In this document: piece by piece, positions 35,604-40,363 of the stretch
Layout of the letters: every line of letters starts with the position of its first letter
Numbering within the stretch: position 1 is the stretch's first letter
From: Candidatus Woesebacteria bacterium GW2011_GWA1_39_21
Lineage (GTDB): Bacteria; Patescibacteriota; Microgenomatia; UBA8517
Direction of reading: 5' to 3'
Assembly (NCBI GenBank): GCA_000993685.1
Contig: LBWP01000002.1
Coordinates: 7,993-71,992, forward strand
Length of the DNA stretch: 64,000 nucleotides
Position numbers and translations under genes: made by a program
The notes under the pieces: model-generated
What the model was told of the DNA's origin: nothing
What the model saw: only the letters and a program-made list of their open reading frames with translations
Database searches by the model: none

Positions 35604-35679
35604 GGCCTGGTAACTCAGTGGTTAGAGTGCCATTCTTATAAAATGGAAGTCGATGGTTCGAACCCATCCCAGGCCACCA
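35604..35679 (+). tRNA. tRNA-Ile(UAU)
   Basis: Full cloverleaf GGCCTGG/CCAGGCC, D ACTC/GAGT, anticodon stem CCATT/AATGG with loop CT-TAT-AA, T arm GATGG-TTCGAAC-CCATC, A73, CCA; TGGTATAAT promoter upstream. Confidence 0.92.
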
Positions 35680-35709
35680 ATATTCTTACATGTCAAAACG
35701 AGGTTTTGT

Positions 35710-35752
35710 CATAAAGTCGATGTACTTGGTTCGACTCCAAGCGGCTCCACCA
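35710..35752 (+). pseudogene. Orphan tRNA 3' half starting at a CAU anticodon
   Basis: CAT-AA-AGTCG-ATGTA-CTTGG-TTCGACT-CCAAG-CGGCTCC-A-CCA; no matching 5' half seen. Confidence 0.8.
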
Positions 35753-36022
35753 AATTTTGATATGTCGAAGCTCTGCTTCGTCATAAAATCGAATTGGTCG
35801 TATCTATATAATCTTCAAGAAATATATAATGATTTAGTATTACCACCGATCGGATTTTTATTTTTTTGTAATATGGTTGGCATTTTGGGGAGTTTATAAT
35901 TTCTTTCTCTTGCCTAAAAAAATCTCTACAGAAAAATCACCTCGACTTTTGTCATTGACTTTTTATCTCTCACCCTAATTGACTTTTGTCTGTCTCGATT
36001 AATTTACACCAGAGAAGTTTCC

Positions 36023-38575: not shown

Positions 38576-38652
38576 GGCCGCAATTATAACATTGGATCAA
38601 AAGCAGAACAAATTATTGGAAAACATTGAAGCGTTATTATTTCCGTTTATTG

Positions 38653-38926
38653 TTGCGGGGTCAGGAGTTGGACCTGATCTGGAAGATTATGCACCTTCTT
38701 GTGTTACCACAAGGGTAGGACTATATCATCATCCCGGCTTTAATCGGGAGTTTGGCGTGTAGTCTCTACGGAGTCCAAAATAAAATATTTTAATTTTAAA
38801 AAGGTTCCCTCGGTATTGTCCTGACATAATCAGGGTGTCCACCGATATAGCCAAATTCTCATTTATAATTACTCATAAATGGGCCCATTTCTACTAGCCT
38901 TCCGTGCAGCCGTACACTACCCCGCA
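38653..38926 (-). tRNA. tRNA-Met(CAU), initiator-like acceptor, split by a group I intron
   Basis: 5' exon 38926-38896 (TGCGGGG..GAAGGCT) and 3' exon 38691-38653 (CATAATCTTC..CCCCGCA-A) join into a cloverleaf; no encoded CCA. Confidence 0.85.
38692..38895 (-). ncRNA. Group I intron (204 nt) between U33 and C34
   Basis: P1 with U-G at the 5' splice site (GGCT/GGCC); ATATCGGTGGA (P), CAATACCGAGGGAA (Q), CGTAGAGACTACACG (R), GATATAGTCC (S); terminal G. Confidence 0.9.
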
Positions 38927-39013: not shown

Positions 39014-39694
39014 ATGGCAAAATTTGCACAAAAAATAGAAGCCAGAAAATTGAGAAGAAAAGGTCAAAGTATAAAAGGAATTGCAAAATCACTTAATGTT
39101 TCTCCAGCTTCAGTAAGTGAATGGTGTCATGATATCAGTCTTACTGTTAACCAGATAAAGATTTTAGAACTACACTCAAGGGATCCTTCTTATGGTAGAA
39201 GATTAACTTATTCATTAAAACAGAAGCAACAAAGGGTAGAAAAAACAAAAAGGTTAATGGAAGAAGGAAAAAAAGATGTTGGAATTTTAAGTGAACGCGA
39301 ACTTTTTATAGCTGGGATTGCTCTATATTGGGCTGAAGGGTTTAAGAAAGATAGTCAAGCTGGTTTGGCAAACCTTGATCCTTACATGATTAAATTTTTT
39401 ATTAGGTGGTTGAATGAATGTTTTCACTATCATGTTGACAATCTCATTTTGAGAGTAACTGTAAATATAAGTCATAAAGAGAGAATTAACGAGATTGAGG
39501 GATATTGGTCTACGGTTACAGGATTTCCTGTAGATAAATTTCAAAAACCTTTTTTTCAGAAGGTTTTGTGGAAAAAAGTATATGAGAACCCCAATGACTA
39601 TCATGGAATATTAAGAGTAAAAGTTAGGAAAAGCGTCGATTTTTTGAGAAGACTAAATGGTTGTATTGAAGGTTTGAGAATGACTACAGATTAA
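39014..39694 (+). CDS. HTH + LAGLIDADG-like (LYWAEG) putative endonuclease
   Basis: N-terminal HTH (SIKGIAKSLNVSPASVSEW), GIALYWAEG, NLDP.MIKFFIRWL; located between tRNA loci. Confidence 0.65.
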   Translation: MAKFAQKIEARKLRRKGQSIKGIAKSLNVSPASVSEWCHDISLTVNQIKILELHSRDPSYGRRLTYSLKQKQQRVEKTKRLMEEGKKDVGILSERELFIAGIALYWAEGFKKDSQAGLANLDPYMIKFFIRWLNECFHYHVDNLILRVTVNISHKERINEIEGYWSTVTGFPVDKFQKPFFQKVLWKKVYENPNDYHGILRVKVRKSVDFLRRLNGCIEGLRMTTD

Positions 39695-39711
39695 GATAAA
39701 ATACGTGTTAC

Positions 39712-39785
39712 GCCAGGGTGGCTCACTCGGTACCTGCCCGCAATCGCTAAAGCGATAGCCTTTTGCAGACGGGGAGCACAGGATT
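39712..39785 (+). pseudogene. tRNA 5' half with 41-nt palindromic insert in the D-loop
   Basis: GCCAGGG-TG-GCTC-ACTCGGTA[39733-39773]-GAGC-A-CAGGA-TT; acceptor strand pairs with CTCTGGC at 40015-40021. Confidence 0.7.
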
Positions 39786-39798
39786 AATCACAAAAATT

Positions 39799-39835
39799 GC
39801 CAACGTAGCTCAGCGGTAGAGCAATCGTTTCATAA
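39799..39835 (+). pseudogene. tRNA(CAU) 5' half ending at the anticodon loop
   Basis: GCCAACG-TA-GCTC-AGCGGTA-GAGC-A-ATCGT-TT-CAT-AA, then non-tRNA linker. Confidence 0.8.
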
Positions 39836-39846
39836 CACAAACATTT

Positions 39847-39918
39847 GCCAAGGTAGCTCAGTGGAAGAGCACGCGTTTCATAAGCGCGGTGTCGAGAGTT
39901 CGATCCTCTCCCTTGGCA
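39847..39918 (+). tRNA. tRNA-Met(CAU), elongator-type
   Basis: GCCAAGG/CCTTGGC, CGCGT-TTCATAA-GCGCG, GAGAG-TTCGATC-CTCTC, A73; followed by CAA, not CCA. Confidence 0.9.
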
Positions 39919-39950
39919 CAACAATTTTGAGACATATCAGAATTTTCTGC

Positions 39951-40025
39951 CATAAACCCGCGGTCGTGGGAGAGTAACCAATTTGTCTTAGGCGGGCGAA
40001 TTGTCGATTCCCACCTCTGGCGCCA
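39951..40025 (+). pseudogene. tRNA(CAU) 3' half with hairpin insert in the T-loop
   Basis: CAT-AA-ACCCG-CGGTC-GTGGG-A[~32 nt]TCGATT-CCCAC-CTCTGGC-G-CCA. Confidence 0.7.
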
Positions 40026-40090
40026 GTTTTATCTCCCAAAATGCTTCAAGCCATTTCTCTTTAGTAATTTATTAAGATATAATTCGCTGC

Positions 40091-40363
40091 ATGAAAGCCA
40101 TTAAACAGTTTGTTGAGGAATTAGTAAAGAATAAGGAGAGAGTACTTAAAAGAGAAATTTCAGATATGGAGGCACGGGTTATTCTGGCTGAAAGCGGGAA
40201 ATTTCCTGAGATGAATGAAGAGCTAAGACTAAGAGCAATAGCTTCGAGCGCCGAACATAGGAACAAAGGAACGCTTTTGGGAAGACAAAAATATATTTTA
40301 GATGGAGAAAAGCAGTTAAGGGCAATTATTTTGGGAAAAGAAAGAGATCGAGAGGGGGATTAA
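40091..40363 (+). CDS. Hypothetical helical protein
   Basis: ATG 7 nt after TATAAT; 90 aa. Confidence 0.55.
   Translation: MKAIKQFVEELVKNKERVLKREISDMEARVILAESGKFPEMNEELRLRAIASSAEHRNKGTLLGRQKYILDGEKQLRAIILGKERDREGD

Follow-up and report, generated by a model that had tools for sequence, protein, structure and literature searches.

A nested tRNA locus (positions 39712-40025) was found in the 64,000-nucleotide stretch of DNA analysed here (the window; positions 7993-71992 of contig C2), in which one intact tRNA-Met is enclosed by the decayed halves of two older tRNA-Met genes. We propose that this nest arose by two successive DNA insertions of a gene-less cassette carrying a tRNA-Met, moved in trans by a single-strand transposase of the Y1/HUH type, and give this reading as a whole a probability of roughly 0.6. 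That the locus was built by DNA insertion and that its outer halves are dead is, taken alone, very likely; HUH (Y1) as the enzyme that would move the cassette stands at about even odds. The assembly carrying the window (G000) comprises 1.04 Mb in 30 contigs and is 92% complete, and datasets containing matches to it are groundwater and soil metagenomes. The features are listed in Table 1.

Table 1. Features of the nested tRNA-Met locus, the neighbouring gene and the sister locus in the window.
Feature	Position	Strand	Basis or remark
Sister locus: intact tRNA-Ile(TAT), then hairpin-2 units 35692-35710 and 35764-35782	35604..35800	+	first unit before old Ile-TAT 3' half 35711-35752, second before short degenerate remnant
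HTH and LAGLIDADG-like gene, 226 aa, between initiator and elongator Met genes	39014..39694	+	410 homologs
Sigma-70-like promoter match upstream of A	39674..39702	+	weak: 10/12; 1 found vs 0.6 in shuffles
5' half of oldest elongator tRNA-Met (A), decayed, anticodon now AAT	39712..39788	+	33/36 to intact Met of L060, D-loop insert removed
41-nt palindromic insert in D-loop of A; distinct repeat family that recurs in older tRNA copies elsewhere	39733..39773	+	seen in G000 C13 Ala remnant, L053, L114, L150, L189
Putative worn left arm of first cassette (bringer of B)	39789..39798	+	resembles left arms in G086, G002, G003
5' half of tRNA-Met (B), cargo of first cassette, later itself split	39799..39833	+	35/35 to intact Met of L285
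Left arm of second cassette; first base mutated relative to relatives	39834..39846	+	comparison with relatives' cassettes
Intact elongator tRNA-Met (C), cargo in loop of hairpin 1	39847..39918	+	ARAGORN, Rfam
Right arm of hairpin 1 and central AT	39919..39935	+	
Hairpin 2, empty; on template strand its end directly follows TTAT	39936..39951	+	
3' half of tRNA-Met A	39952..40025	+	34/37 to L060, T-loop insert removed
33-nt insert in T-loop of A; family also in T-loop remnants of Val, Lys, other tRNAs	39971..40003	+	repeat comparison

The tRNA caller ARAGORN and the Rfam models detected a single tRNA at the locus, the inner tRNA-Met (64.8 bits), which is also the sole elongator Met gene called in the G000 assembly. 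All pieces of the nest listed in a first-pass annotation of the window are present where it placed them, with corrections at their borders. The 5' half of A runs to 39788 rather than 39785; the 5' half of B is real, but the final AA (39834-5) of the TTCATAA with which it was said to end at 39835 is cassette DNA; and the 3' half, said to start with CAT at 39951, starts one base later, since the remnant in loci L150 and L189 reads TAT and the C at 39951 is thus cassette DNA. The outermost acceptor strands of A do pair (7/7, one pair being G-T), and the inserts described in its D- and T-loops were confirmed, although they belong to families other than the cassette. Both anticodon-stem mismatches described in A are also present, but only one of them is new, the other being found in the intact relative L060 as well.

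With the inserts removed in silico, both A halves independently picked the intact Met of L060 as best partner among 180 distinct NAT tRNAs, and the joined halves are identical to it at 65 of 71 positions. Together with the match of B to the intact Met of L285, this shows that A and B are real former genes, and the halves do align to tRNAs as the first-pass annotation supposed. Both are now degraded: A carries substitutions in addition to the two inserts, has lost conserved tRNA bases and is classed by ARAGORN as a possible pseudogene even when freed of its inserts, and the 3' half of B is absent at this locus, while a B-type 3' half persists in genomes G086 and G003 behind further hairpin units. 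The window's own cassette copy is likewise worn, with its first base mutated, one hairpin pair left and the 3' half of B gone. The promoter match upstream of A would drive the whole nest, with the inner tRNA probably cut from one precursor.

Misassembly of strain variants, raised in the first-pass annotation as a way the locus could be spurious, finds some encouragement in the many B-like tRNA genes of the community that pile up on 39799-39835. However, the junctions were recovered in contigs from other samples and another study. In metagenome run X4, from another sample, three contigs tile 39400-39835, 39806-39921 and 39892-40300 with 0, 0 and 1 differences, and in run X11, from another study, one contig covers 39806-40150 with 1 difference; this support consists of overlapping contigs, each covering part of the locus. 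The bridged junctions make misassembly unlikely and, with the same layout found in other genomes, we consider it scarcely credible.

We next consider removal of the inserts at the RNA level, as nested introns or by trans-splicing, in which case A and B would still yield mature tRNAs; the first-pass annotation had offered split or trans-spliced tRNAs as its alternative. Such processing would accommodate the remaining pairing of the outer acceptor strands, the fold of the region, which is better than that of shuffles (z −2.6), and the intact outer halves of young copies. However, Rfam models found no group I core in 39712-40025 at E≤5, while the true intron at 38697-38905 scored 75 bits as a positive control. 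The right ends vary and show no conserved terminal G, and the TAT of the L150 and L189 remnants, in place of CAT, means that splicing would change the anticodon. Neither the archaeal splicing endonuclease nor RtcB was found in any of the five nested genomes (91-97% complete), and no bulge-helix-bulge was evident at the junctions on inspection of the computed fold. With A stripped of conserved bases and B without its 3' half, this explanation is disfavoured and appears very improbable. Trans-splicing group I fragments, to which the likeness of the right linker to a P7-P9 end might point, were also considered and rejected, as there is no core and no terminal G is conserved.

Two known kinds of interrupted tRNA resemble the nest. 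Group I introns also interrupt the anticodon loop, and a true example lies 0.8 kb away in the initiator tRNA; the cassette differs in having neither catalytic core nor terminal G, and the rescue is by a spare gene instead of by splicing. Archaeal split, nested-intron and permuted tRNAs have halves with complementary flanks. The likeness to archaeal split tRNAs lies in those flanks and the difference in that here no splicing endonuclease or RtcB was found and the halves decay. The neighbouring initiator-type tRNA-Met (38652-38926, minus strand) has a 204-nt group I intron after U33. The anticodon stem of an initiator tRNA usually has three G-C pairs; these are lacking in this gene and also in its relatives. 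A second group I intron, with a long insert in its core, was seen in an apparent 23S rRNA at C23:6087-6224 (minus strand) of G000.

To define the inserted unit, 13 inserts were parsed. G002 and L114 were set aside because they have no right part, L162 because its layout differs, and one further insert as a duplicate; the parser demanded pairing at stem positions 1 and 3 and left position 2 unconstrained. The unit consists of two hairpins joined by AT and then a further AT, with a whole tRNA in one of the loops. Eight of the 13 inserts parse cleanly, giving nine hairpin pairs, and five do not, among them the window's own, with its first base mutated, and L210, whose ends are fully paired; the G003 insert is partly misparsed, and L110, L210 and G107 deviate from this grammar. 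In the cleanly parsed cassettes, position 1 is A-T or G-C and position 3 is C-G, A-T or G-C. Position 2 holds a purine-purine mismatch in 9/9 first hairpins and a pyrimidine-pyrimidine mismatch in 9/9 second hairpins, and this opposite polarity indicates that the two hairpins face opposite strands, the second being the first kind read on the other strand. The arms vary in sequence yet remain complementary: for 12 nested tRNAs the mean length of the longest inverted repeat in the flanks is 9.5 nt, compared with 4.5 nt for 41 others, counting kin that are not independent.

The inserts measure 120-161 bases, too short for a transposase gene, and hold no genes. Either hairpin, 1 or 2, can hold the cargo tRNA in its loop, and the anticodon of the cargo is that of the host in 11/11 metagenome cases. 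Cassettes follow TTAT on the template strand in 13/13 inserts, a count that is no independent evidence, as TTAT is fixed on that strand in all these tRNAs. The AT at both cassette ends may be encoded by the element or stem from a 2-base target duplication, and some junctions are near-palindromic around AT.

The same nesting of the Met locus was recovered in G086, G003, G002 and G107, and nested NAT tRNAs in metagenome loci, in answer to the question whether linker-tRNA-linker units recur in relatives, and G000 itself holds a second clean case in its tRNA-Ile(GAT) on contig C27. Younger copies in relatives and metagenomes (L150, L189, L132, L146, L170, L225 and G086) keep both old halves intact around an insert of 120-160 bases, which bears out the proposal of the first-pass annotation that a mini-element with a whole tRNA repeatedly enters the anticodon loop and replaces the resident. 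Its target was only partly captured by that proposal: Met-CAT is hit, but so are Ile-GAT and Ile-TAT, and the site is the ATAA of NAT tRNAs rather than a CAU tRNA as such. The look-alike of the right linker at 35680-35790 does contain hairpin-2 units; the remnants there, however, come from no CAU tRNA, as the 3' piece at 35711 matches the intact tRNA-Ile(TAT) of L299 at 35/40 positions, making the sister locus an Ile locus. Assignment of that piece to tmRNA or Met was ruled out accordingly.

These two-sided copies also bear on whether the locus could be an accumulation of ordinary integrative-element scars, where a 5' half was restored by one element and a 3' half by another before the islands themselves were deleted. 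Integrative elements (phages, ICEs, islands) take tRNA genes as their attB and leave them restored, and the resulting scars are common (PMC9897764). One-sided remnants do flank several tRNAs in G000 (Val, Lys, Tyr, Ser, Asp). The inner tRNA, however, departs from the outer tRNA simultaneously in both strands of its acceptor stem and of its anticodon stem and so came whole, which att scars that restore halves cannot achieve. Complementary arms enclose it on both sides, and the young two-sided copies largely refute this account, to which we give very little credence. Like the integrative elements in the accessible text of PMC9897764, the cassette inserts into a tRNA gene, leaves its function in place and leaves tRNA fragments; it differs in placing a whole divergent tRNA between both old halves within about 120 bases and without a gene, and it lacks the att-scar layout of a full copy and an incomplete one at the opposite ends of an integrase-bearing element.

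The ends of the cassette match those of a dispersed IS200/IS605-like repeat of G000. This repeat measures about 105-195 bases; in G000, TTAT precedes 22 of the 27 left ends found, and GTCAT forms 14 of the 17 right ends. At 30 loci across the family, TTAT precedes 25 copies and GTCAT closes 27. The central motif of the repeat was detected in 23 of 125 family genomes; nested G086 has 23 copies of it, and nested G002 and G003 lack the exact motif. Read on the template strand, the cassette has the order of the dispersed repeat (TTAT, purine-mismatch hairpin, AT, pyrimidine-mismatch hairpin, GTCAT-like end), and the eight bases around the central AT are identical between the window's cassette and the repeat. 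Inner hairpins lie in the loops of the repeat, at distances of 17 and 10 nt from its ends that approach the 19 and 10 nt given for IS608 (PMC3201880), and in one copy (L360) the right inner hairpin is lost, as in empty tRNA units. A lenient genome-wide scan with the hairpin grammar returned 23 matches against 9-17 in shuffles. Short non-tRNA stretches at C7:48898 and C4:3592 of G000 fit the two-hairpin grammar after CTAT or TTAT; they may be empty minimal elements or chance.

The same DNA cassette might instead be moved by an enzyme using the central AT, such as a serine recombinase or a DDE/IS110-type enzyme making a 2-base duplication, or it might have a rare origin followed by spread of the whole locus through natural transformation and homologous recombination. 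AT stands at both ends and in the middle of the cassette, and the near-palindromic junctions around it fit such an enzyme, as would a reading of the ends as a 2-base target duplication, which IS200/IS605 does not make. A serine recombinase is present in G000, and two genera have an almost identical cargo tRNA (94-95% over 80-86 bases), as expected from lateral spread. In contrast, the strand-specific mismatch is conserved, which suits an enzyme that recognises single-stranded hairpins, TTAT stands on one side only of the related dispersed repeat, whose spacing is IS608-like (PMC3201880), and no match to the IS110 family was found in G000. We regard these other routes as possible but rather unlikely.

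The search for a Y1/HUH enzyme gave a mixed picture. Y1 matches occur in four of the five nested genomes and are weak or RAYT-like, the single match in G000 being weak (E 2e-8); none was found in nested G107, and neither TnpB nor IS110 families matched in G000. None of 23 Y1 loci, searched within about 1.5 kb in incomplete assemblies, had an autonomous element with the cassette ends, and two viral scans returned no such match. The tRNA cassettes also lack the inner IS605-like hairpins and guide tetramers needed by TnpA in IS608. Elsewhere, a 0.9-Mb CPR genome (G113, e.g., L307) holds 29 copies of an IS200-type tnpA element, a recent burst whose ends differ from those of the dispersed repeat in G000.

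In the reading we prefer, a gene-less two-hairpin cassette with a whole tRNA-Met would move as a unit and be pasted, as single-stranded DNA, after TTAT on the template strand of the anticodon loop by an IS200/IS605-type transposase (Y1/HUH) acting in trans. The insertion may be tolerated as the cargo would replace the broken essential gene, and the cargo would then be transcribed from the old promoter region, where the match is weak, and processed. The old halves would decay and gather other repeats. The cargo's own anticodon loop would be the next target and, as the cargo recreates the target, nesting in the manner of a Russian doll could follow; a deletion between repeated hairpin units may have removed the 3' half of B. 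In any NAT-AA anticodon loop the template strand has TTAT, which would explain the cassette in Met-CAT, Ile-GAT and Ile-TAT, the anticodons searched. A bolder version is that the tRNA is selfish and self-targeting: the cargo would pair with the matching host tRNA gene, steer a borrowed HUH transposase to the anticodon loop, destroy and replace the resident, and rebuild the target. We hold this version to be tentative and on balance doubtful. A cargo-guided cassette would be a natural counterpart of the engineered IS608 with extended pairing (PMC5934647).

The gene directly upstream of the nest suggests another possible agent. Its HTH and LAGLIDADG-like product could cut tRNA-Met, with donor repair leaving a resistant new tRNA inside the old one. 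In its predicted model the protein is similar to I-DmoI, WhiA and an intein endonuclease, with Z 6-7 and an rmsd of ~3-4 over 80-89 residues, making it a candidate nuclease, although Foldseek returned nothing at E≤0.001. At 19 of 30 homolog loci, an elongator Met gene lies within 160 bases of the stop codon. However, 14 of these 19 loci have a plain tRNA and no remnants, as judged by eye; nested G002, G003, G086 and G107 have no match at E≤1e-20 with the window's query; and Ile tRNAs are nested with the same cassette grammar. The gene thus does not travel with the altered target, and we consider its involvement improbable. The gene is patchy in the family (40 of 125 genomes), and distant homologs adjoin Lys, Gln, Asn and other tRNAs.

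Among known mobile elements, the PATEs of Haloquadratum are gene-less IS200/IS605 derivatives, and terminal-only versions of 52 bases may be mobile (PMC3119063). Compared with their description in the accessible text of that source, the cassette is similarly short and gene-less, has palindromes at both ends and stands after a 4-base AT-rich motif on one strand, a motif that is fixed in these tRNAs; it differs in carrying a whole tRNA gene, hitting the matching tRNA gene, regenerating its target and having neither guide tetramers nor the subterminal hairpins that a transposase binds. Imperfect subterminal palindromes with 4-base guides are present in the PATE-like dispersed repeat of G000 but were absent from the parsed tRNA cassettes, so we do not count the cassette as a PATE, though it would work like one with a complementing cargo. 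Within the open-licence literature, we came across neither a report of a complete tRNA enclosed by a split copy nor an account linking a tRNA cassette to a dispersed repeat of this kind.

If the preferred reading is right, the cassette would be a minimal selfish element carrying nothing but the essential gene that it breaks, in organisms that have hardly any genes to spare. Such an element would account for tRNA wreckage in CPR genomes that annotation tools miss, and tRNA gene histories in these genomes need not follow the species tree. The tie to an abundant IS200/IS605-like repeat makes the mechanism testable, as it predicts the strand, the cut site and the class of enzyme. Should targeting be guided by the cargo, the cassette would represent a natural programmable single-strand insertion system; a self-targeting selfish tRNA would imply continual lateral turnover of essential tRNA genes in CPR bacteria.

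The distribution of the nest was surveyed at tRNA sites with the anticodons Met-CAT, Ile-GAT and Ile-TAT, and all nested cases were found with a pattern that demanded the old 5' half. A family scan for the left junction matched 10 of 124 genomes, of which four were real (G002, G003, G086 and G107), one was ambiguous and five lay in coding DNA. Over the genome collection the left junction gave 29 loci: four real nested Met loci, adding no further layouts, and 25 chance matches. A class-wide scan for the right junction matched 5 of 401 genomes against about 15 control matches, with only G237 and G000 real; at this background level the exact junction signature appears uncommon. The metagenome scan covered 120 of about 250 stretches and, with the viral scans, yielded at least 162 loci, at least 106 of them distinct: 63 intact tRNAs with G37, 16 without a nested call and 27 loosely nested. 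In at least 11 of the 27 a NAT tRNA was nested; one of these repeats a layout counted before, and all come from metagenomes, none being viral. A viral scan for cassette right arms gave two matches, neither of them nested.

Other tRNA genes of G000 show related disturbances. ARAGORN found 37 tRNAs and none for Phe, Gly-GCC/TCC, Ala-TGC, Val-TAC, Pro-TGG, Leu-TAA or Ser-GCT, the assembly being incomplete or the genes interrupted. Genes for Trp (C18:59767-59838), Ala-CGC (C13:5265-5336), Lys-TTT (C2:104376-104448), Arg-CCG (C10:20433-20505) and Ile-GAT (C27:763-835) also lie between old 5' and 3' remnants; all but the Ile nest use other repeat families, which indicates that several kinds of cassette exist. 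One-sided duplicated tRNA ends with short hairpin spacers, resembling miniature att scars, were seen at C1:82162-82238, C18:54795-54880, C9:851-939, C6:30899-30973 and C22:10087-10172, and tandem arrays of such ends at L051 and L281.

Further variants were seen outside G000. About 20-215 bases past the ORF stop at L272 (G067) lies an elongator Met-like gene whose D- and T-loops hold large inserts and whose acceptor strands are mismatched; a nested replacement is absent, and no match to a C-type Met gene was found in G067. At least 63 distinct intact Ile-TAT, Met and Ile-GAT tRNAs with G37 were seen (L112, L115, L123, L116 and others), many of the Ile-TAT genes on giant-virus contigs. On virus-like contigs (L108, L179, L183, L192, L198, L231, L262, L268 and similar), a tRNA-Ile(TAT) 5' half is directly followed by a near-identical tRNA with a short anticodon-loop insert, a layout that differs from the nest.
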